The notes below the pieces were generated by a model. That model ran no database searches. It was given only the letters and a program-made list of their open reading frames with translations, and had not been told where the DNA came from. Below are positions 26,269 to 49,878 of a stretch of 64,000 nt of DNA, piece by piece. This DNA comes from Candidatus Nanohaloarchaea archaeon. Its GTDB lineage: Archaea; Nanohalarchaeota; Nanosalinia; Nanosalinales; Nanosalinaceae. Positions within the stretch are counted from its first letter, which is position 1; each line of letters starts with the position of its first letter. The stretch lies in the NCBI GenBank assembly GCA_013343275.1, contig CP046106.1, positions 448,001 through 512,000 of the forward strand. Reading direction: 5' to 3'. The position numbers were made by a program, and so were the translations under genes.

Positions 26269-28786
26269 TTGACCACCTCAGATCAAGCCGGTAAGGCATA
26301 AACACTTCCTCACTAACACTTCCCACGATCTCGGTTGAGAACCGCGGCTGGTTCTGCTGCTCGAAAGAAAGCTGATCTCCTCTCAACCAGTACAGCGTAG
26401 AGGCCAGCACCTTTACATCTGACTGCTCGTAACTCTGCTCGTACGCCGCTCTTGCCAGTCTCTGACCTTCAAAACCTTCAAAATTGGTTCTGTAATTGAT
26501 CAGTTCTATCTCGTCCGATCCTGCAAAGACAAACTCCGCACATAGCCTGCCGTCGTCACAACCTGTTTCATTGTTGAAGGCAACCCTGTAACGCCGGTTA
26601 GCTATAATAACTCTTTCTCCCTGCAGGAACGGGCCTTCACCCTCATCGCCGTAATTACCGTTGTCATTGAAGTCGACATTCAGGGCCCGTATATCAGTTC
26701 CATCGCTTGAACCTAGATAAGTGTTAAGCACGCTATATGTTGCACCATTCGGGAATGTGAAAGTATCCATCGTATACTCTGACCCTGAAGGCGCACCGGG
26801 CGGCGGCGATGTAGGTGACATACTCCAGGAGGAGGCATTCCAGTCATCCGAGTTGTACCTGTGGTTGATGGCATAGAAAAAGTTGTTATCCGAGGTCACA
26901 GTCTCAGCGCCTCCAGACTTCACCCAACCTCCAGGAACCAGAGAGACATCACGCTGATCTCCGTTAAGCCCCTGGAAGTATGAGTCAGCCTCATCAGAAA
27001 CCGTAGTGGTGAAACCTCCAACCAGGTTAGCGAGATCCACAAGGCCTGCCGTTACCTGAATCGAGCCAGACGAGGCCGTACCGCTACCGCTTCCACCACT
27101 GATCTGTATATTGAAGTTAGTATTACCTGATCCACTTCTCACGAATATACGGCCTCCTGCACCACCACCGGCAGAGGAACTTGCATCCCCTCCATTCGCC
27201 GATAAAGTGCCAGATCCGGAGACCTGATGGGACTCTACTCTAATGCTGCCTCCTGAGCCGCCACCGCTGTCCGCAGTTCCATCCTCACCGTCCATAACTA
27301 TAGAGCCTGAGAGCGCGAATTCTTCGCTCTGTATCCATACAGAACCTCCACCAGATCCGCCAGCAGCATTGTCATCTGTATCGTATCCTCCAGCAGATCC
27401 AGGGCGTTTGGCCTCGAAGGAAGAACCGTATTCGCTGCCTCCTGCAGCGGCTCCAGAACCTCCAGGCCCACCGTATCCTCCGCCACCGGCTGCAGTTGCA
27501 GATCCACCTGCTCCTGGGCCGTAAGCAGTAGAGCCACTGCTTCCATATCCTGCCCCCGTTCCTACGAGAGATCCGTCAATATTGACCTCTCCTTCTACCA
27601 CAATCTTTGGTGCATACTTGCTGTAAAGTACGTTTTCACATGTGCCACTAGGAGAGTTCTTGCATACTGAAAGATTGTTCTCGACATAGGCCGTGGCCCC
27701 TGATTCAATTGTCAGGCTGTTCAGGAAATGCCTGCCCGGGCCGAATGTGCAACCGGAGTTGGATGAGTCTATGATCACATCTCCGGTATGGGGACAGGTG
27801 GTGGATTTGCTTCCCTGGCTCATACCTACCCATTCCAGGCCAAGGTCCTGAATGAAGTCATTACTGTTGGTAGTGGATTTATCCAAATTCATCAAGAGAA
27901 GAACTGAGCCTGTTTTCATGAAGTCCTCCACCTTCTGCCGGTTGGCCTGAATACTGGAAAGAGCTGCCTCATCTCTGAAAACCAGTATCTCGTACTTTGA
28001 CAGGTTTGCACGTCCAAGATCAAATGTGCTTACAGAGGTCCTGGTGTTTATGCCATTGACCTCTCTGGAAAGCATTTTCTTCATTTTAACAGGTTGATCA
28101 GCTTTGAAGAGCGATACACTGCTCGAATCTATCTCCTTGATATCATAGTAAGTATCAGGGTTGTCATCTGTCATATTACCCCAGAGGAAAAAGTTATCGA
28201 TATAGTAAGGGCCTTCACTGTTAGTGAACTGGCACTGAGTCTTGTTATCTACCCAGACGGTATCATAATCAGTCTCGGAATTGAAACCTCCAGAAACTCT
28301 TGGATCGGTATCCCCCACATAGAGCACCACGTTGTGCCGTGATTGACGGGAGGCAGCAGGATCTGTCTGCCGGAGCGGTACTCCTGGCTGCACTTCCTCT
28401 TCTAACTCTGTCAGATCACCGCTGCAGTCTGTGATTCCCTGGAGGCCCTGATTCGGGTACTGTCTCTTCGGCAGAACATTGTATCCTACAGAGGTCTCAA
28501 GTATAGGCAGATTTGAAACCGTCCCCGATACATGCATATTACGGCCTGATATCGTTGTTATAGCGGTTTTAAGAGACCCTATTTCGGCGTTCTTCATGAA
28601 GTGAGTTATGTGGCCGGTTTTCTTGAGCGTATAGCTGATATCCTGGGCTGCGACCTCCTGCTGGAAATTGCTCCAGTTCTGATTGTCAGGGATATCAAAG
28701 CTTCCGGCTGCAAATGCAAGAAGTATGAATATAGATACCATTAGTTCTATTGCGTATCCTGCGCCTTTCCTGTTCACCAGGCCCAC
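26261..28786 (-). CDS. Large pilin-like protein with class III signal peptide and Gly-rich domain (candidate adhesin)
   Basis: RKG/AGYAIELMV N-terminus; repeated GGGxGGxI/V motifs; lies within the pilus operon. Confidence 0.72.
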   Translation of the reverse strand: MGLVNRKGAGYAIELMVSIFILLAFAAGSFDIPDNQNWSNFQQEVAAQDISYTLKKTGHITHFMKNAEIGSLKTAITTISGRNMHVSGTVSNLPILETSVGYNVLPKRQYPNQGLQGITDCSGDLTELEEEVQPGVPLRQTDPAASRQSRHNVVLYVGDTDPRVSGGFNSETDYDTVWVDNKTQCQFTNSEGPYYIDNFFLWGNMTDDNPDTYYDIKEIDSSSVSLFKADQPVKMKKMLSREVNGINTRTSVSTFDLGRANLSKYEILVFRDEAALSSIQANRQKVEDFMKTGSVLLLMNLDKSTTNSNDFIQDLGLEWVGMSQGSKSTTCPHTGDVIIDSSNSGCTFGPGRHFLNSLTIESGATAYVENNLSVCKNSPSGTCENVLYSKYAPKIVVEGEVNIDGSLVGTGAGYGSSGSTAYGPGAGGSATAAGGGGYGGPGGSGAAAGGSEYGSSFEAKRPGSAGGYDTDDNAAGGSGGGSVWIQSEEFALSGSIVMDGEDGTADSGGGSGGSIRVESHQVSGSGTLSANGGDASSSAGGGAGGRIFVRSGSGNTNFNIQISGGSGSGTASSGSIQVTAGLVDLANLVGGFTTTVSDEADSYFQGLNGDQRDVSLVPGGWVKSGGAETVTSDNNFFYAINHRYNSDDWNASSWSMSPTSPPPGAPSGSEYTMDTFTFPNGATYSVLNTYLGSSDGTDIRALNVDFNDNGNYGDEGEGPFLQGERVIIANRRYRVAFNNETGCDDGRLCAEFVFAGSDEIELINYRTNFEGFEGQRLARAAYEQSYEQSDVKVLASTLYWLRGDQLSFEQQNQPRFSTEIVGSVSEEVFMPYRLDLRWSNE

Positions 28787-29640
28787 ACCTCCATTTTCAC
28801 AGGGTGGACAGTGCTACCTACTTCCATCGCTGCGTACCGATTCAGCTTGATAACTCGAGAATCCTGATCGAAAGCCGCACCAAAGGTAGTCATGGTTCTC
28901 TTGAGTACAAACATTGCTCCAGGCTCCTCTTTCCTGTTCTGTACTGTATGAAGCTGGAAAGGGTAGCCTGCAAGGGTTAAAGTGCCTCCTACCGCGTGAC
29001 GCGTGTACTTATACTGTGTTCCAAAGTCACAGGGATAGTATGCCGAGGCGTTGTACTCTGTCTTGTACACAGTATCGTAGACACCGTTATGCGATACAGT
29101 AAGGAAGCAGTACCGTGTCGATACAAAGTCCTCAACAGTGTAATGGACTTCGTTATCTGCACTCCAGTAGTTATCTATATCGCTGTCCGGTTCATCGATA
29201 AAGCTCGGTGAGTTAGAGCGGGTAAAACTTTTCGAGGTAGTAATTACGGGCATCCAGGTAAAACGGAACCTGTAATCGTGGCTTAGATGTAGGGCCTCTG
29301 TAAATATAGAATAGTTTAGCTTGTCGGATCCGACAGTTGAAAGCCTGTCTATCTTGTCTTTCTGCAGGAGTTTGTAGTCAGAGGCCAGACCTACATCTTC
29401 AGTGCTGCGGAGAGTAGAGAGGTTCTTCTCCCAGTTAGTGGTTCCCTGACCATGACCGGAGTAGCCTGGCTGCGTCATTAGGCGTGTTGAGAGGCTGTAG
29501 GCCTCCAGGTTAAGCGATGCCTGATGTACATCGTTCCTGAACTCCGGTACCTTTCCAGCGCCGATCGATGCTATTCCAAGCACCGCTATGAGGAATAGAA
29601 CCATTGAACCGAAGTACTCGATGCTGAACTGCGCTTTCAT
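28774..29640 (-). CDS. Pilin-like protein with class III signal peptide
   Basis: Likely start MKA/QFSIEYF at 29640, overlapping the stop of the upstream gene. Confidence 0.75.
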   Translation of the reverse strand: MKAQFSIEYFGSMVLFLIAVLGIASIGAGKVPEFRNDVHQASLNLEAYSLSTRLMTQPGYSGHGQGTTNWEKNLSTLRSTEDVGLASDYKLLQKDKIDRLSTVGSDKLNYSIFTEALHLSHDYRFRFTWMPVITTSKSFTRSNSPSFIDEPDSDIDNYWSADNEVHYTVEDFVSTRYCFLTVSHNGVYDTVYKTEYNASAYYPCDFGTQYKYTRHAVGGTLTLAGYPFQLHTVQNRKEEPGAMFVLKRTMTTFGAAFDQDSRVIKLNRYAAMEVGSTVHPVKMEVWAW

Positions 29641-30692
29641 TATGGCAACCCCGCAGGAGCAACTATCATCATGAATGCGACGAAGGCCAGTGGCAGCATG
29701 ATTAAAGCGTGTTTTACACCTGCGCTCGGGCTTCCCTCTGATACCTGACCCGCAACTGCTGCGGTACATGCTCCCTGTATCATCAGCATTGTGAAGAGCA
29801 GCGACTTGTAGTAAGCCATTCTGCCGTAACTGTACTTGTTAGCGTACTGGCTGGTCAAATCATTAGTTACGTTAGCCGGGATAAATCCAAAGATCTTTGC
29901 TGTAGAGCAGAAAGGTCTTGCCGATGCGATAGCTCCACTACAGTAGTTGGTCGGGCCGCTGCCTCCGCCTCCGCCACTACCCTGACTACTCAACACCTCT
30001 TTTACTCCAGAGAGCGCTCCCGGATCAGGGCTTCCAAGGCCGAGGAGCTGCGCCAGCATAGTGTATATTCCTATCGTTATGCCTATGAACAGGAAGTAGA
30101 TAACGTACATGATGACAAGTTGCTGTCTCAGTTTTGCGTCTTTCTCCTGTATAACCTCCTTGAGTTTGGTTGCGTCCTCTCCTACAGATTCGATGGTCTG
30201 CGTGATTCCACCCCCGCTCTCAAAGCTCTGAATTATGATAGATGTCGACTCCTGTATGACTGCAGAGTCGCTCATACGTTTGTTGAAGCGCTCCATAACC
30301 TCTGGGAACGGGATTCCCCATGTAAGCTCGTAGTGGATCTTCTCGATCTCGCTGTTAAGCCTTCCGTAATCCGTTTCCTTGGCTGATTCAAAGGCTCTCA
30401 TAATTGTCATGCCTCCTCTCTTCGACTCAGCCAAGTCCTTCAGGAAGGAAGGGAATTGATCCTCCATCTGTCGAACCGCCCTATTACGGAGGAAAGATAA
30501 AATACCATAAGGTACAACGCCTATAAGCAGGCCCAGTATGAATGCGATTCCTCCTATTCTGTCAGCGCCCTGAAGGTAGAGGAAGAGGCCTATAAGCAGT
30601 ATAAATCCACCTACAGCTAGAGCTCCATAAATTATCTTCTTTGTAAGCGAGTAACCTGGTTCAAAGTCTTCCTCCTGGAAAAAATCTAGCAT
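29640..30692 (-). CDS. Type II secretion system F family (PilC/TadC-like) platform protein
   Basis: FPSFLKDLAE..RGG, WGIPF, ESGG motifs; TMs. Confidence 0.88.
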   Translation of the reverse strand: MLDFFQEEDFEPGYSLTKKIIYGALAVGGFILLIGLFLYLQGADRIGGIAFILGLLIGVVPYGILSFLRNRAVRQMEDQFPSFLKDLAESKRGGMTIMRAFESAKETDYGRLNSEIEKIHYELTWGIPFPEVMERFNKRMSDSAVIQESTSIIIQSFESGGGITQTIESVGEDATKLKEVIQEKDAKLRQQLVIMYVIYFLFIGITIGIYTMLAQLLGLGSPDPGALSGVKEVLSSQGSGGGGGSGPTNYCSGAIASARPFCSTAKIFGFIPANVTNDLTSQYANKYSYGRMAYYKSLLFTMLMIQGACTAAVAGQVSEGSPSAGVKHALIMLPLAFVAFMMIVAPAGLP

Positions 30693-30696
30693 TTTA

Positions 30697-31569
30697 TCAC
30701 CTTATTCCTCCAGGAGCTATCCCTCTTACAAAGATTATGAACATACCAGAAATTAAAGGAAGGCCTACGAAGATCGCTATTACCTGAACTGTTACAACCA
30801 GCTGGGGCGACATTGATGCAAATGAGCTCATAACTGCGCTCATAGATGTAAAAATTATAGAACCAACAATGACGATTGTAATATACATCTCCACCAGCAG
30901 AGATAGCTGATCAGCAAACTCCTCAACTCTCCTCTCGTAATCATTCATTAAAGTCTCTGCCCTCTGTCTTAAAAACTCTCTAAGAGACCCTCCCGTAGTT
31001 ATAGAGTGGTTAATACCCCAGACAAGCTCTTCAAAATCATCACTAGGAGTCCTCTCGGCTGCACGCTTCAAGGCCTCACTTATATCCATACCTAGAGTGT
31101 TGACATCCCTACTGATCTTGGCAGCCTCCTTGGAAACCTCTCCATACTCCTCCACCTCTGAGAGATTCTGGAAGATTTCAGGTAGGGATGTACCGGTGCC
31201 TGCCAGAGTCGACAGATACATTGTGGCAAAGGGTAGAGTATCCCGAATCTTGGAGGCCCTGTTGCTTACCAGTATTCGCGGGTAGATGTAGAATCCTACA
31301 AATGTAAATATTGAGAAAAGTATTCCAAATATTATCCCTATCATAAGGCCTGCGATACCCATACTCAGAGCCATTAAGCCTCCGATAAACAGGAAGCTGG
31401 CGCCGAATACTGAGGCTGTTGAAACAAACATGGTGCTCAGGTATTCCGGCAATGAAATTTCCAGACCTGCCTTGGTAAGCTTGGGTCTCAAGCCTTCAAA
31501 GTACTCAAGATACTGCAGTGCGTATGCTCCGGCTAACTGGTAACAGAAATCGCTATACTTCTTGAGCAT
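30697..31569 (-). CDS. Type II secretion system F family (PilC/TadB-like) platform protein
   Basis: LPFATMYLSTLA, YGEVSKE, G.DISEAL...AERTPS. Confidence 0.88.
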   Translation of the reverse strand: MLKKYSDFCYQLAGAYALQYLEYFEGLRPKLTKAGLEISLPEYLSTMFVSTASVFGASFLFIGGLMALSMGIAGLMIGIIFGILFSIFTFVGFYIYPRILVSNRASKIRDTLPFATMYLSTLAGTGTSLPEIFQNLSEVEEYGEVSKEAAKISRDVNTLGMDISEALKRAAERTPSDDFEELVWGINHSITTGGSLREFLRQRAETLMNDYERRVEEFADQLSLLVEMYITIVIVGSIIFTSMSAVMSSFASMSPQLVVTVQVIAIFVGLPLISGMFIIFVRGIAPGGIR

Positions 31570-33265
31570 TGTTAATGTCTACTTCTTCATTATCAGCATT
31601 AAATGTTTGCCCAATCTTCTCCATCACTCTCTGCGGGTTAGAGTAGTACCTAGAAATCATATCACCTACATCCCTGTAGTGCTTGATCTGCTGGTCCTGC
31701 ATGTAGTTCAGTACGTGCTGACGGTTCCGGACCTCGTTCTTCAGATCCTGATAGTCCATTCCACTCTGATCGGCAATATCCTTCAGGATCATCGACTTGT
31801 TCTCGACATAGTACTCATCCTCCTTCGGATCCCATCCAAACACCTTGTTCGCATCAATACCCGTCCTCTCCTCATATCCACGGACTTCAAAGATGCCGTT
31901 AATCCTTCTGATATAGCTGCCGTCACGGCGAATCCTGGAAATCAACATAACAGCATCCAGAGTCTCGATCAGGCTGCCAGACAGGTTAATCGGCTCAGTC
32001 GTCAAACGGTCCATAAGCATGTCAAGGCTGTCGGCGTGGATAGTACTGAGTCCTGTGTGGCCTGTTGCCATCTGCTGGAACAGAATGTAGGCCTCTTCAC
32101 CACGGACCTCACCGACGATAATGTACTCAGGTCTCTGACGTAGAGATTCCTTGAGCAGGTTATCCATCGATACCTCTCCACCTTCCTCAGCGGATGAACC
32201 GAAACCTGAACGTGCTACCTCTGGCACCCAGTGCTCGTGTGGAAGCCTGAGCTCTGGCGTGTCCTCGATCGAGACAATCTTCTTGTCAGGCCTTATGAAC
32301 AGAGATAATGCATTTAGCTGTGATGTCTTACCGGATCCTGTAGTTCCTGCAATCAGTATTGATTTTCCGTGTTCCACCAGTGTCCAGAGATAGCTGTACA
32401 TCTGTGCGTTCTCCGTCTCGTAGTCCATCATGTGGATAGGAGTCAATGGGTCCTCTGTGAAACGACGGATCGTGAAGTTCGAACCTTTACGAGCAATGTC
32501 AGTTGCCAGAGTGGCCTGTACACGGGAGCCATCCGGCAGCGAACCATCGAGAAGTGGGCTGGAGACCGAAATCGACCGGCCGCATCTCTGAGCCAGCTTC
32601 ATGACAAACGCATCCAGCTCATCTTTCTCCTCCCAGACAATATCTGTCTTCACTGAGCCATATTTCGGGTTTCTGTGGTATGCATAGACAGGGATACCCT
32701 TCCCGTCGCAGGAGATATCCTCTACCTCAGTGTCGTTCATCAGAGGCTGCAGTCTTCCGAGGCCCGCGAAATCCCTCTTTGTGTAGTACCGTATTACCTC
32801 TTTCTGCTGACTGGTGACGTTCAGATTGTATTTATCGACAATAGTATCTATCTTCTTCTCCAGGTATTCGTCCGCGTCTCCGCTCTCAAGGTCGTTGAAG
32901 TCTATATCGAAGCTTCTCTGCATGATTGAATGGACTTTATCAAGAAGCTGCTCTATCTGAGGAGTGATCTCTGGTTCAACAACTCTGTAAACCAATTCTT
33001 CCTCCTCTTCGCTCCAGGAAATATGGGCCCATGCATACACCATTTCGCCTTCATCCGGGTCTGCAGGAACTAATGGGTATGTAACATCTACATCTGTTAG
33101 ATCAGCTTCGTCCTGTCCTTCATCGATCATCTCAGGGCTGAACTCTCCCGGAGCAGGTACCGAGATACCTGGTTGATTCTGGGTTTCCTCTTCCTCGTCT
33201 TCATACCACTCCGGGTGTTTCATCTTCCGGAGCCTACCTATCAACCCGTTCAAGTTCGCAGACAT
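31553..33265 (-). CDS. pilB: Type IV pilus assembly ATPase (archaeal PilB/VirB11 family)
   Basis: EDISCDG, GTTGSGKT, SIEDTPE, LRQRPEYIIVGEVRG, TGH..STIHA. Confidence 0.93.
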   Translation of the reverse strand: MSANLNGLIGRLRKMKHPEWYEDEEEETQNQPGISVPAPGEFSPEMIDEGQDEADLTDVDVTYPLVPADPDEGEMVYAWAHISWSEEEEELVYRVVEPEITPQIEQLLDKVHSIMQRSFDIDFNDLESGDADEYLEKKIDTIVDKYNLNVTSQQKEVIRYYTKRDFAGLGRLQPLMNDTEVEDISCDGKGIPVYAYHRNPKYGSVKTDIVWEEKDELDAFVMKLAQRCGRSISVSSPLLDGSLPDGSRVQATLATDIARKGSNFTIRRFTEDPLTPIHMMDYETENAQMYSYLWTLVEHGKSILIAGTTGSGKTSQLNALSLFIRPDKKIVSIEDTPELRLPHEHWVPEVARSGFGSSAEEGGEVSMDNLLKESLRQRPEYIIVGEVRGEEAYILFQQMATGHTGLSTIHADSLDMLMDRLTTEPINLSGSLIETLDAVMLISRIRRDGSYIRRINGIFEVRGYEERTGIDANKVFGWDPKEDEYYVENKSMILKDIADQSGMDYQDLKNEVRNRQHVLNYMQDQQIKHYRDVGDMISRYYSNPQRVMEKIGQTFNADNEEVDINNAQEV

Positions 33266-33673
33266 CTATCTATCACTCAAGATCAATTTGTTTTGCTCCT
33301 TCAAAATACTTACTTCCCCGCCGTCGGCTGAACCGGAGAATCGATACGTGGAGTTCAGGTTTTCAAAACTGGTTACATACTCCTCATTTCCTACAAGTAC
33401 GAAGAACTTACCGTTCTCCAGATCCATCTGATAGGAGGAATCGCCTATACTATCAGGCAGATCAACAGCCACCGTCGCAGAACCGTTCTCTATATGGCCA
33501 ACAGATAAAAGGGCAGTAGCAACTTTGGACTGCACAGCATCTACCTGCGAGGACTCCACATCCTCCATAATACTATTCTGGAAAGTAGTGAAAGCAGTTA
33601 GAAGACCTAGAGCAACCATAAGGCCTATACCCAGAGATAGTACCGCCTCCACCGCTATAAACTGGCCTTTCAT
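33266..33673 (-). CDS. Pilin-like protein (class III signal peptide)
   Basis: MKG/QFIAVEAVL N-terminus. Confidence 0.78.
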   Translation of the reverse strand: MKGQFIAVEAVLSLGIGLMVALGLLTAFTTFQNSIMEDVESSQVDAVQSKVATALLSVGHIENGSATVAVDLPDSIGDSSYQMDLENGKFFVLVGNEEYVTSFENLNSTYRFSGSADGGEVSILKEQNKLILSDR

Positions 33674-34353
33674 CCTAGATCTATGCTGATAACGTATCTC
33701 TTACGGTTTAAGGCCCTTCCAGAAGGCAATGTGACGGCCTCCGAACCCGTATCCATCCGGGTTCCTTCATTACGTATTCTTACAGTGGCGCCACCTGCAG
33801 CTTTTGTTCCTCCTGCAGCTACAAGGTCTATCTTTTCCAAACGAGAGCCAGAAGGTGTTTCTACATACATATTTCTGAACTCAATCCTGTAGGTCAGCAA
33901 AGTAGCTGAACCCCCAGTAGATTTCACCATGACTATCCCTGGAAGGTCTTTCCCGCTTATAGCATAGGCTCCGGTCTCTGCACTTGGTCTTATAGATATA
34001 TTTTGCAGACTGTCCCCTTTCAGAAATGTCCAGCGGTTGGCGTAGGGCGCGCTGCGGGAGGTACGGACCGTTACGTTGATGTAGTCTTTTTCAGAGTTAA
34101 CATTTACTCTGCGTATTGATGATTCCGAGTTCGGAAGCTTCAAGGGATACGGAGTTAATGTTCCTTCACCGGACTCCTTAACATCTATTATTTCCGAATA
34201 CAGGCCGACAACGTTATCTTCTATATTTGATACTGTTGCTTGGCCCTGTCGTTTCTCGAGTATAGGCGTTCCCCATACGTAGACAGATGCCACAGCACCT
34301 ATTGTAAGACCGGTGACTAGAATTGCAGTTACTGCAGTTGTCTGGCCTTTCAT
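33670..34353 (-). CDS. Pilin-like protein (class III signal peptide)
   Basis: MKG/QTTAVTAILV...VYVWGTP. Confidence 0.78.
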   Translation of the reverse strand: MKGQTTAVTAILVTGLTIGAVASVYVWGTPILEKRQGQATVSNIEDNVVGLYSEIIDVKESGEGTLTPYPLKLPNSESSIRRVNVNSEKDYINVTVRTSRSAPYANRWTFLKGDSLQNISIRPSAETGAYAISGKDLPGIVMVKSTGGSATLLTYRIEFRNMYVETPSGSRLEKIDLVAAGGTKAAGGATVRIRNEGTRMDTGSEAVTLPSGRALNRKRYVISIDLG

Positions 34354-34411
34354 GTAATCAGGATAATCAGAGATAGAATATAAAATGAGGGGAAATGAAA
34401 AGTAAGGAAGT

Positions 34412-34942
34412 TTAGCAGCCTACTGAGCTACTGGTCTGTGGATCACATGTCCATGGTCCGAAGCTCTTTGCCGCTCCATCCATACTAACTGATATGCCTA
34501 TTGAGTTAGCTGCTGAAGGCCACTCAATACCGGTATTACAGGTATACTTCTCTCCTGGATTCACAAGTTTGTAGTTGCTCTGCTCAAAGCAGTTCTTAGC
34601 TGTATCACTGAAGGTGAAAGGTGTTGATGCTAGTGCACGCCCGGAAACTGCCGAGCCTGTACCCTGCGGCACGTAGGACATGCTGAACTCAGTACTGTTC
34701 CACGCTACACTTCCTACGTTAGACAATGTAATATTGACATATGCCGGAGAGCCACTGGTCTTGTAGAGGCTCTCCATATTCATATCCGTATTCCTAATCT
34801 GCTGCTGCTGGTTCACCTGCTGGCCAGGATTCCCGATTAGGCTTTGGAACTGAGTGTATACAACTCCTACCGCTCCTACAGTTATGAGAAGTAGTAGAAC
34901 AATAGCAATTACAGGCGTTATACCTTTCCTCTTTGTTAGCAT
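34412..34942 (-). CDS. Archaeal type IV pilin (probable major pilin)
   Basis: RKG/ITPVIAIVLLLLITV canonical pilin H-domain; C-terminal Cys residues. Confidence 0.88.
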   Translation of the reverse strand: MLTKRKGITPVIAIVLLLLITVGAVGVVYTQFQSLIGNPGQQVNQQQQIRNTDMNMESLYKTSGSPAYVNITLSNVGSVAWNSTEFSMSYVPQGTGSAVSGRALASTPFTFSDTAKNCFEQSNYKLVNPGEKYTCNTGIEWPSAANSIGISVSMDGAAKSFGPWTCDPQTSSSVGC

Positions 34943-34994
34943 GATACCACTTATATCCTAGATTCCTTCTGCCTACTTAAATAGTTTTTTCGAC

Positions 34995-35477
34995 TTAACA
35001 GGAGTCTTCGCCGTTACTGTTGCTGCAGACTATCGAGGAGGAAGTATCGTACTGACCTCTCAGGACGATAGTAGTTGAACTCCCTACAGCAGGATAGGCC
35101 TTCATAGTATCTATAGTAACAGTATCTCCTGGATCAAGGGCGTTGTCCGACGGTGCACCGTAAGCATAGGTCCAGGATAACTTGTTGCCGTCCGAGTATA
35201 TATTCCAGAGCTTAACCCCGTCTTCCTCAGTAGCCAGAGTCATATCCCCATCATTTGTTACTTCAAGCCAGATATTACCGTTGCTACCTCTGTAACCGTA
35301 CTCTATACTTAACTCAGCTTTCTGCTCTTTGCTATCTACTCCTAATCTCTCCTTAACTCCTTCCCCAACATCGTCGACAGTATCGCTGAGAAAGATAGCT
35401 GAAGTAGAAACTGTGGCTATGCTGATAAGCAGAAGTAAGGAAGTTGCAACTACAGGAGTGACTCCTTTTCTATTCAT
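34995..35477 (-). CDS. Archaeal type IV pilin
   Basis: Likely start MNRKG/VTPVVATSLLLLISI at 35477; C-terminal C..C. Confidence 0.85.
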   Translation of the reverse strand: MNRKGVTPVVATSLLLLISIATVSTSAIFLSDTVDDVGEGVKERLGVDSKEQKAELSIEYGYRGSNGNIWLEVTNDGDMTLATEEDGVKLWNIYSDGNKLSWTYAYGAPSDNALDPGDTVTIDTMKAYPAVGSSTTIVLRGQYDTSSSIVCSNSNGEDSC

Positions 35478-40330: not shown

Positions 40331-40585
40331 CTAGGCCGACCTCTTGACTTCGTCTCGTATCATTGATTTAGCTACCTGGTACTCTGTAAAGTCATCTATT
40401 TCGATCTGGTCAAATCCCTGCTGGTTCATGAACTGTTTCGGATTATCCAGCTCCTTCCCGTTATCGTAGGAGACTACCAGCGCGAACTCTCTGAGAATAT
40501 CGAAAACCCTCTCCTTCTTACCGCTTTCAAGGAATTTCTTGGCTTTCTTGTCGAATTCATCCAGCATATCGTCTTCACTCATCAT
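40331..40585 (-). CDS. Hypothetical protein
   Basis: 84 aa ORF tightly packed between gatD and the kinase gene. Confidence 0.7.
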   Translation of the reverse strand: MMSEDDMLDEFDKKAKKFLESGKKERVFDILREFALVVSYDNGKELDNPKQFMNQQGFDQIEIDDFTEYQVAKSMIRDEVKRSA

Positions 40586-49217: not shown

Positions 49218-49361
49218 CTGAAGACCGAAGTCGACAGGTTAGGCCTCTGCGTTATCTGCGGAGATAGAGTCCACAGCCAGGAAGACTACCTGCAAGCATC
49301 CGAAGGCTACTGTCACCAGAGCTGCGTAAACAATACTCGTATAGTAGAAGCTGAGGCCTAA
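49218..49361 (+). CDS. Small zinc-finger protein (CxxC...CHxxC), 47 aa, probable CTG start
   Basis: Read by hand: (M)KTEVDRLGLCVICGDRVHSQEDYLQASEGYCHQSCVNNTRIVEAEA*. GGGGGAGGTG SD 7 nt upstream; paralog at 10544. Confidence 0.72.
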   Translation: MKTEVDRLGLCVICGDRVHSQEDYLQASEGYCHQSCVNNTRIVEAEA

Positions 49362-49423
49362 CAGCGAAGAAAAAACCACAAACACTTTCTTTTTCTTCTT
49401 TCTTAGACGGCCTTTGAAAAGTA

Positions 49424-49566
49424 TGGGAAAGCCGGGAATCGAACCCGGGACCTCTGCGTATCTCACAAACGAATTGTTTTATTTAATCATCAAGGCCTTC
49501 CGTCGGCCTCTCATTGCTCATAAAGTTGTTATGAGCGCAGCGCTCTAACCGCTGAGCTACTTTCCC
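49424..49566 (-). tRNA. tRNA with CAT anticodon (elongator Met or Ile2), 70-nt intron at 37/38 (49460-49529)
   Basis: Acceptor stem GGGAAAG/CTTTCCC, anticodon arm CTGCG-CTCATAA-CGCAG after splicing, GGTTCGATTCC T-arm. Canonical BHB with central helix CTCA/TGAG and bulges TAA and ATA. Confidence 0.93.
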
Positions 49567-49679
49567 AAACTTTGAAGCGAAGTTTGATCACGCTCGGCTC
49601 CAAAGGAACCGACTTCAGAAAGTTCCTGAACGCCACCGTAGGTGGCTTCACGCGTGCCGCACTCCGCGTTAGGAGGCGA

Positions 49680-49753
49680 TGGGTTCGCCCGGATTCGAAC
49701 CGGGGATCTCCGCCATGTCAAGGCGGTGTCATAACCAGCTAGACCACGAACCC
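49680..49753 (-). tRNA. tRNA-Val(GAC)
   Basis: GGGTTCG/CGAACCC acceptor, CCGCC-TTGACAT-GGCGG anticodon arm, GGTTCGAATCC. Confidence 0.95.
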
Positions 49754-49878
49754 TTAGACGGTTAATTGATGGTTGGGAGTGTACTTTTTTGAATCACTTG
49801 CAGTATTTTGGTTATTGTTTTTCTGGTTAGGCTTAAATAGTTAGGAAGACCATTTCTGGGTAGAGGTAAGAACTGTCG

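Follow-up and report, generated by a model that had tools for sequence, protein, structure and literature searches.

The window analysed here is a 64-kb stretch of Candidatus Nanohaloarchaea DNA (64,000 nt; contig CP046106.1, positions 448,001 to 512,000) and contains, on its minus strand, an intron-bearing elongator-type tRNA(CAU) gene. Analysis of the intron, together with comparison to other archaeal tRNA(CAU) introns, suggests that it is probably a minimal box C/D-type guide, built on a single kink-turn (K-turn), for 2'-O-methylation of C34 of its own host tRNA. The gene matches Rfam family RF00005 at 49424-49566 (60.4 bits, E 1.4e-10), with a 72 nt insert between model positions 36 and 39, and is absent from the ARAGORN output for the window. 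The acceptor stem (GGGAAAG/CUUUCCC), anticodon stem (CUGCG/CGCAG) and loop (CUCAUA, intron, A), as read from the sequence, therefore place a 70-nt intron (49529 to 49460) at the canonical 37/38 site. An initial annotation of this DNA had given the same intron, which the sequence and the RF00005 match bear out. The features of the locus, with intron nucleotides numbered i1-i70, are as follows.

49424..49566, minus strand: intron-containing elongator-type tRNA(CAU) gene (Rfam RF00005 and sequence reading)
49530-49566 and 49424-49459, minus strand: 5' exon and 3' exon of the tRNA(CAU), from the sequence
49530..49536, minus strand: predicted target strand G31-A37, with C34 at 49533; once the tRNA is spliced, A38 (49459) extends the pairing to the full 8 bp
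49516..49523, minus strand: antisense (putative guide) element i7-14, UUAUGAGC; G11, at 49519, pairs with C34
49511..49514, minus strand: D-like box AUGA, i16-19, of which G18 and A19 would give the tandem sheared G.A pairs
49492..49510, minus strand: hairpin forming the canonical stem of the predicted K-turn, GAGGCC (i20-25), 7-nt loop GACGGAA, GGCCUU (i33-38)
49484..49491, minus strand: K-turn bulge G39 A40 U41 and C-like box AUGAUUA (i40-46), from a structural parse
49469..49483, minus strand: A/U-rich linker i47-61, between the C-like box and the bulge-helix-bulge (BHB) strand, from the sequence
49460..49468, minus strand: 3' side of the BHB motif, from a constrained fold

The antisense element UUAUGAGC is a perfect complement of G31-A38 in the spliced tRNA, and in the pre-tRNA pairs with G31-A37 plus intron A1. 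A single A (i15) separates it from the D-like box, and the partner of C34, G11, is the fifth nucleotide upstream of AUGA, in agreement with the N+5 rule. The BHB motif is canonical (hBHBh'): C32-A35 pair with i65-68 (UGAG), the bulges are U36 A37 i1 and i69 i70 A38, and the outer helix is formed by i2-4 and i62-64. The BHB strand i65-68 is a separate copy of the anticodon complement, distinct from i7-14. A guide perfectly complementary to G31-A38 and separate from the BHB helix, followed by ATGA and a hairpin (AUGA, i16-19; hairpin, i20-38 in the computed folds), with the fifth nucleotide upstream of ATGA opposite C34, had been described in the initial annotation, and these particulars are upheld.

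The box consensus is RUGAUGA for C and CUGA for D. From the sequence, we infer that the boxes fold into a K-turn with the stem i20-25/i33-38, the bulge G39 A40 U41, tandem G42.A19 and A43.G18 pairs, a U44.U17 pair and a U45-A16 pair. AUGAUUA agrees with the consensus at six of seven positions and AUGA at three of four; the U.U pair, the final A and the GA dinucleotides of both boxes are retained, and the canonical C1-G6 box pair is replaced by A16-U45. The 6-bp hairpin between the boxes (four G-C, one A-U and one G.U pair) is present in every fold computed. The C-like box had earlier been set at TTGATGA (UUGAUGA, i37-43). This register is 3 nt out, because in it the stem would run straight into the sheared G.A pairs, with no 3-nt bulge between; the correct register, AUGAUUA at i40-46, is common to the window and six related introns.

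Related introns were collected by scanning genome contigs with an exon-only pattern (D-arm, anticodon loop, intron-sized gap and T-arm), chosen so that intron content was not presupposed, which returned at least 122 loci. The pattern was too permissive, and the matches were mostly bacterial tandem tRNA genes. A complementary anticodon stem was present in 49 rows, and removal of nine bacterial tandem-gene rows (L004, L019, L024, L034, L053, L056, L107, L114 and L121) left 40 listed archaeal introns (39 loci and the window). These comprise 14 from Methanobacteriales, 7 from Haloarchaea, 4 from Thermoproteota, 8 assorted others, and 7 that bear the module defined below.

A Watson-Crick duplex of at least 6 bp through C34 is found in 7 of the 40 listed introns. 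In all seven, a four-letter box ending in GA lies exactly 5 nt after the C34 partner and is followed by a 3-6-bp stem-loop, a 3-nt bulge and GA. The carriers of this module are the window, L093 (a Nanoarchaeota metagenome-assembled genome, MAG), L038 (a Woesearchaeota MAG), three Micrarchaeota-labelled loci (L054, L098 and L120) and L061 (unlabelled, with L098-like exons). The same module at offsets of 2, 3, 4, 6, 7, 8 or 9 nt occurs in 0 of 40 introns in each case, and dinucleotide shuffles predict 0.0066 full modules in the 40, against the seven seen. The initial annotation had proposed a single D-stem-C K-turn with an antisense element placing C34 at D+5, to be compared with the introns of other DPANN archaea; this is strongly supported, as six of the 39 other listed introns keep guide, boxes and spacing, with covariation. 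The module is absent from the 7 haloarchaeal (31-56 nt) and 14 Methanobacteriales tRNA(CAU) introns among the matches listed.

Within the seven, the guide duplex spans tRNA positions 30-35 in two introns, 31-37/39 in four and 31-38 in the window. The D-like box is AUGA in four, then CAGA, UUGA and AAGA. The caveat raised earlier, that ATGA departs from the consensus, stands as to the deviation itself; its weight is reduced, since AUGA is the commonest D-like box and A16-U45 takes the place of C-G. The related introns stop a few nucleotides past the C-like box, and the stretch corresponding to linker i47-61 is missing from those of 43-48 nt.

These counts bear on the simplest alternative, that the resemblance is due to chance, in an intron without any role apart from being spliced out. 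The string TATGAGNNNTGA by itself occurs once in 64 kb against 0.88 expected, which is not significant; the case rests on the combination of elements. Shuffling the window intron also often yields loosely defined K-turn-like units (1803 of 5000 shuffles). Of 20000 mononucleotide shuffles, 162 contain an 8-bp Watson-Crick duplex through C34, and 3 of 5000 dinucleotide shuffles give a duplex of at least 6 bp with a D-stem-bulge-GA unit at N+5. Background occurrences of a relaxed motif (UGAG and a K-turn unit at N+5) number 1 on the window strands (128 kb) and 3 on the locus strands (195 kb); the motif's only other copy in the window is a background match at 1855 on the plus strand, inside an open reading frame (ORF). 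A covariance model built from the six non-window modules ranks the window module (49484-49522) first in the 64 kb (15.5 bits), with an E value of 0.14 that is not significant alone and would suit chance. The second match of this model, 40554-40583 (E 0.4), was set aside as background at the start of a small ORF. Given the rarity of the full module in shuffles and its recurrence in 7 of 40 listed introns, always at offset 5 and with covariation, chance is barely credible as an explanation.

Covariation was assessed by a programmatic structural parse of the seven module introns; a MAFFT alignment of anticodon arm and intron misaligned the hairpins and was not used. Guide position -2 tracks tRNA nucleotide 31, being C:G in the window, L093 and L038, and U:A in the four Micrarchaeota-type introns, and guide position -1 pairs with nucleotide 30 in three introns. 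The second stem pair is A-U, G-C or C-G, and the third G-C, C-G, U-A or A-U. For the closing pair D1-C6, three introns have U-A, one has G-C and one G.U, and the remaining two have an unpaired G.A. All seven have a bulge ending in AU as well as the tandem GA, and six have the final A.

In the Micrarchaeota-type introns (L054, L061, L098 and L120), guide position -10 pairs with U39 in four of four and position -9 with A38 in two of four, in both cases only with the exons joined. The C-like box of these introns overlaps the strand expected to form the splicing helix.

A genuine C/D-type guide might instead have another RNA (rRNA or another tRNA) as its physiological target, the match to its own anticodon being secondary. 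An 8-nt guide is short enough to match other RNAs, and the available part of Randau 2012 (PMC3491384) names no target for the comparable intron RNA of N. equitans. No rRNA was identified in the window. Covariation between guide and host, seen at position -2 with nucleotide 31 and, in the Micrarchaeota-type introns, at positions -9/-10 with A38/U39, would be expected only of a guide aimed at the host tRNA, and another target is accordingly very improbable.

The pre-tRNA has a minimum free energy of -51.5 kcal/mol (z -4.24; 0 of 200 shuffles as stable), and this fold holds both the guide-anticodon hairpin and the K-turn hairpin. The fold constrained to the cloverleaf and BHB reaches -42.6 kcal/mol in the nearest-neighbour model, against -51.5 for the guide-paired pre-tRNA; the isolated 8-bp guide duplex is at -8.8 kcal/mol. 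Since folding predicts a ground state with the guide-anticodon hairpin, in competition with the BHB, the intron could act by masking. The K-turn would then be merely structural or bind L7Ae, and the anticodon complement would mask or chaperone the anticodon loop, timing splicing or preventing premature recognition, with no methyl transfer. Degenerate boxes and a single K-turn suit such a role, and anticodon-intron pairing is common in pre-tRNAs. Masking needs no exact 5-nt offset, however, and this offset is kept in all seven introns, from about four lineages, despite differing duplex spans. The boxes, too, keep C/D-specific traits (AU before GA, a closing pair, the final A in six of seven) and not generic K-turn ones. 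We therefore regard masking without methylation as unlikely.

If the intron is a C34 guide, as we favour, the K-turn would be bound by L7Ae, and Nop5 and fibrillarin would join, probably with a Nop5 dimer holding two half-mer RNAs; with only one box pair, the window RNA would be a natural half-mer. Fibrillarin would then methylate the ribose of C34, the partner of the fifth guide nucleotide counted upstream from box D. Because the pre-tRNA is predicted to be lowest in energy with the guide-anticodon hairpin formed, the most economical order would be for the precursor to be methylated in cis, to refold into the BHB and then to be spliced. Given the energy difference in favour of the guide-paired form, cis action before splicing is, on this model, at least as likely as action by the excised or circular intron, the route put forward in the initial annotation. 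The two relatives with duplexes of only 6 bp are a further point for cis. It is possible that the intron acts instead in trans, after excision and probably circularization. This is considered because the N. equitans intron accumulates as a stable RNA, according to the text available (PMC3491384). The pairing of guide positions -10 and -9 with U39 and A38 only in the spliced reading also hints that spliced tRNA, and not the precursor, may be the substrate in the Micrarchaeota-type introns.

The tRNA has a G1-C72 pair, and its anticodon stem lacks a run of three G-C pairs at its base. We take it on these grounds to be of elongator type and not initiator-like. The initial annotation argued for Met over Ile2 identity, for which the sequence gives only the non-initiator character; Met is inferred. 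A CAU anticodon alone cannot tell elongator tRNA-Met from tRNA-Ile2, in which C34 is converted to agmatidine, and the intron pairing might serve that pathway or block MetRS or TiaS. No positive sign of this is seen here. The recorded intron-bearing CAU tRNAs are elongator tRNA-Met (H. volcanii, PMC7714728; N. equitans, in the available text of PMC3491384), and extracts of PMC6601510 and PMC4033218 record 2'-O-methylated C34 (Cm34) for archaeal elongator tRNA-Met. Ile2 identity is thus quite improbable.

Several points weigh against the intron being a methylation guide. The guide is known here from sequence alone, and both boxes are off consensus (AUGA for CUGA, AUGAUUA for RUGAUGA). In archaeal C/D small RNAs (sRNAs), C/D and C'/D' motifs are normally both required, at a spacing of about 12 nt, and the window intron has a single K-turn without a bipartite C'/D' unit: no second box pair or K-loop was found in i1-15 or i47-70, and no second guide or box pair in i47-70 or across the circular junction. 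A GUGA at i64-67 has no partner and is separated from the C-like box by 17 nt. No element placing nucleotide 39 at N+5 was found in the window intron, which has one guide and one K-turn. The duplex is short (8 bp in the window, 6-9 bp in the relatives, against a usual 10-12 bp). By itself the intron shows no unusual stability (z -1.84; 9 of 200 shuffles do as well), the covariance-model match falls short of significance, and no Rfam C/D family exceeded threshold over 49300-49800 in E-value mode; the best match, snoR64, reaches 20.3 bits (E 0.45), its gathering score being 45. The comparison sample is small and was drawn from a scan with at least 122 loci, with no window self-match and no named nanohaloarchaeon among the matches listed. 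Four of the positives are closely related Micrarchaeota-type introns, and the seven therefore represent about four independent lineages. Finally, fibrillarin, Nop5 and L7Ae are not among the 55 ORFs scanned in the window. Fibrillarin orthologues occur in more than 90% of sampled archaea (PMC8481954), and the fibrillarin and Nop5 clusters of orthologous groups serve as archaeal single-copy markers (PMC9258230).

The comparisons with known systems that follow draw on the available parts of the papers cited. By description, the closest system is an intron of 66 nt in the elongator tRNA-Met gene of N. equitans. It is reported to yield an abundant, stable RNA whose D box fits the consensus, whose C box deviates at one position and which contains a GC hairpin of 6 bp (Randau 2012, PMC3491384). 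N. equitans has fibrillarin and NOP56; the available text assigns the RNA no target and nowhere uses the word 'anticodon'. The two elements share a tRNA-Met-type intron, a DPANN host, similar length (70 against 66 nt), C/D-like boxes with a deviating position and an internal 6-bp hairpin. N. equitans belongs to the Nanoarchaeota and its stable RNA is supported by RNA-seq, whereas the window comes from Nanohaloarchaeota, from another habitat, and its element is a reading of DNA. We file the window element with these N. equitans-type intron-encoded tRNA-Met guides.

The euryarchaeal pre-tRNA-Trp intron guides Cm34 and Um39, the corresponding modification of U39 (PMC4090602, PMC7994747). As a full sRNA it carries C, D', C' and D boxes and a pair of guides, for C34 and U39; it is excised and circularized (Clouet-d'Orval 2001, Bortolin 2003 and Singh 2004, via PMC4090602, PMC7994747, PMC4033218 and PMC11408192). 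Its length is about 100 nt (103 nt in H. volcanii; PMC7714728), and a 2014 review calls it a 'unique example' (PMC4090602). Like it, the window intron occupies the 37/38 site, has a BHB, would carry a guide for its own C34 and is complementary to its own anticodon arm; in both, guide pairing competes with the splicing structure. In contrast to tRNA-Trp, the window has one K-turn, one guide, the order D-hairpin-C and a different tRNA, and a two-guide Cm34/Um39 arrangement is not found.

C34 of elongator tRNA-Met is also targeted in halophilic archaea, to which the window likewise belongs, by sR-tMet, a stand-alone box C/D RNA guiding Cm34 of haloarchaeal elongator pre-tRNA-Met (Joardar 2011, via PMC4033218 and PMC6601510). 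That RNA is encoded at a separate locus, whereas the putative window guide lies inside the intron; as noted above, none of the seven listed haloarchaeal introns carries the module. A half-mer C/D RNA has been crystallized with its target and the archaeal core proteins, and one K-turn with one guide suffices in vitro for assembly of L7Ae, Nop5 and fibrillarin and for target binding (PMC6239191). In contrast to the window RNA, those half-mers are laboratory constructs. Natural, circularly permuted sRNAs with D upstream of C exist (PMC3491384, PMC6009581) and, unlike the window, still carry two box pairs. The window element thus appears to work like the known intron and C34 guides in its K-turn and N+5 placement, and departs from standard archaeal sRNAs in lacking a bipartite C'/D' unit.

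In the literature searched, we found no self-targeting C34 guide in a tRNA-Met intron, nor such an element in Nanohaloarchaeota; Joardar 2011, Clouet-d'Orval 2001, and Figure 6 and the supplements of Randau 2012 may bear on the point. The features not found in print are the C34 self-target, the D-hairpin-C half-mer layout and the spread over several DPANN-type lineages. More tentatively, and with some doubt, we suggest that small-celled DPANN-type archaea (Nanohaloarchaeota, Nanoarchaeota/Woesearchaeota and Micrarchaeota) could share a natural half-mer C/D ribonucleoprotein (RNP) in the tRNA-Met intron, with one D-hairpin-C K-turn and one 6-9-nt guide, that methylates C34 of its own host in cis before the splicing refold.

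It is tempting to speculate on the consequences. If the window intron is a self-guide, intron-encoded self-guiding would not be peculiar to tRNA-Trp and, for elongator tRNA-Met, would be a recurrent solution in several reduced-genome archaeal lineages, giving a concrete reason for intron retention in tiny genomes. It would also bear on the minimum size of a C/D RNP, as two box pairs at a fixed distance are thought necessary in archaea; with a natural guide of one K-turn, models of half-mer and di-RNP assembly could be tested directly on a physiological RNA. The predicted switch from the guide-paired form to the BHB could put modification before splicing. Were the shared half-mer proposal correct, this would be the smallest natural C/D guide and would carry its own 'modify, then splice' switch; it might also show how stand-alone guides, haloarchaeal sR-tMet among them, originated or how they were lost into introns. 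For annotation, the locus combines a tRNA missed by ARAGORN with an sRNA class not captured by Rfam.

Several listed introns merit separate mention. L041 (a Hadesarchaea MAG) fails the strict criteria and was left out of the seven, having a G.U pair in the guide and no stem between the boxes. Its 50-nt tRNA(CAU) intron (L041:401-492) reads UGUGAGUG-CUGA-9 nt-AUGAUGG, with a canonical D box and a near-canonical C box, and its guide, with the one G.U pair, also puts C34 at N+5; it may be a K-loop version of a C34 guide outside DPANN. For L093:320-384 and L038:420-479, no canonical BHB was found with the intron set at 37/38, and position 38 of L093 would be C; their splice sites may lie elsewhere, or the BHB motif may be relaxed. 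The 5' part of the guide in these two introns is also paired in the closing stem of the free intron.

The window intron runs ACA...UGUGAGAU, and similar ends (ACA/ACG at the start, GUGAGAU/GUGAGAC at the finish) occur without the guide module in five haloarchaeal introns (L006, L029, L083, L086 and L028) and a Methanomicrobia MAG (L088). The shared ends may reflect only the same BHB constraint, or common ancestry with the module inserted or deleted. The 14 Methanobacteriales introns (L003, L010, L011, L022, L025, L035, L039, L042, L043, L052, L066, L081, L092 and L102), 35-40 nt long, are strikingly conserved. They are mostly GGGU...GCUCUGAC...CCUGGGAU and contain CUGA, and no C-like box or anticodon complement was seen in them.

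A tRNA-Val(GAC) gene reported by ARAGORN (49680-49753, minus strand) lies 113 nt upstream of the tRNA(CAU) gene on the same strand, and co-transcription of the pair is possible. Scanning of 55 window ORFs gave archaeal housekeeping genes (aRF1, thermosome, GatDE, RFC, PCNA, TFS and several aminoacyl-tRNA synthetases). Sixteen window ORFs, when pooled, are strongly acidic (Asp + Glu 0.191, against Lys + Arg 0.107). The best named relatives of the GluRS adjoining the tRNA(CAU) gene are Candidatus Nanohaloarchaea (76%), and Nanohalobium and Nanosalina (70-74%), which bears out the Nanohaloarchaeota lineage guessed in the initial annotation. An unlisted small ORF of about 84 codons (40331-40585, minus strand) lies directly downstream of gatD; the second covariance-model match falls at its start. 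Further away, an archaellum or type IV pilus-like cluster (28774-35000, minus strand) comprises a FlaI-like ATPase, two ArlJ/FlaJ-like membrane proteins and an UpsA-like pilin, with large unannotated ORFs nearby.

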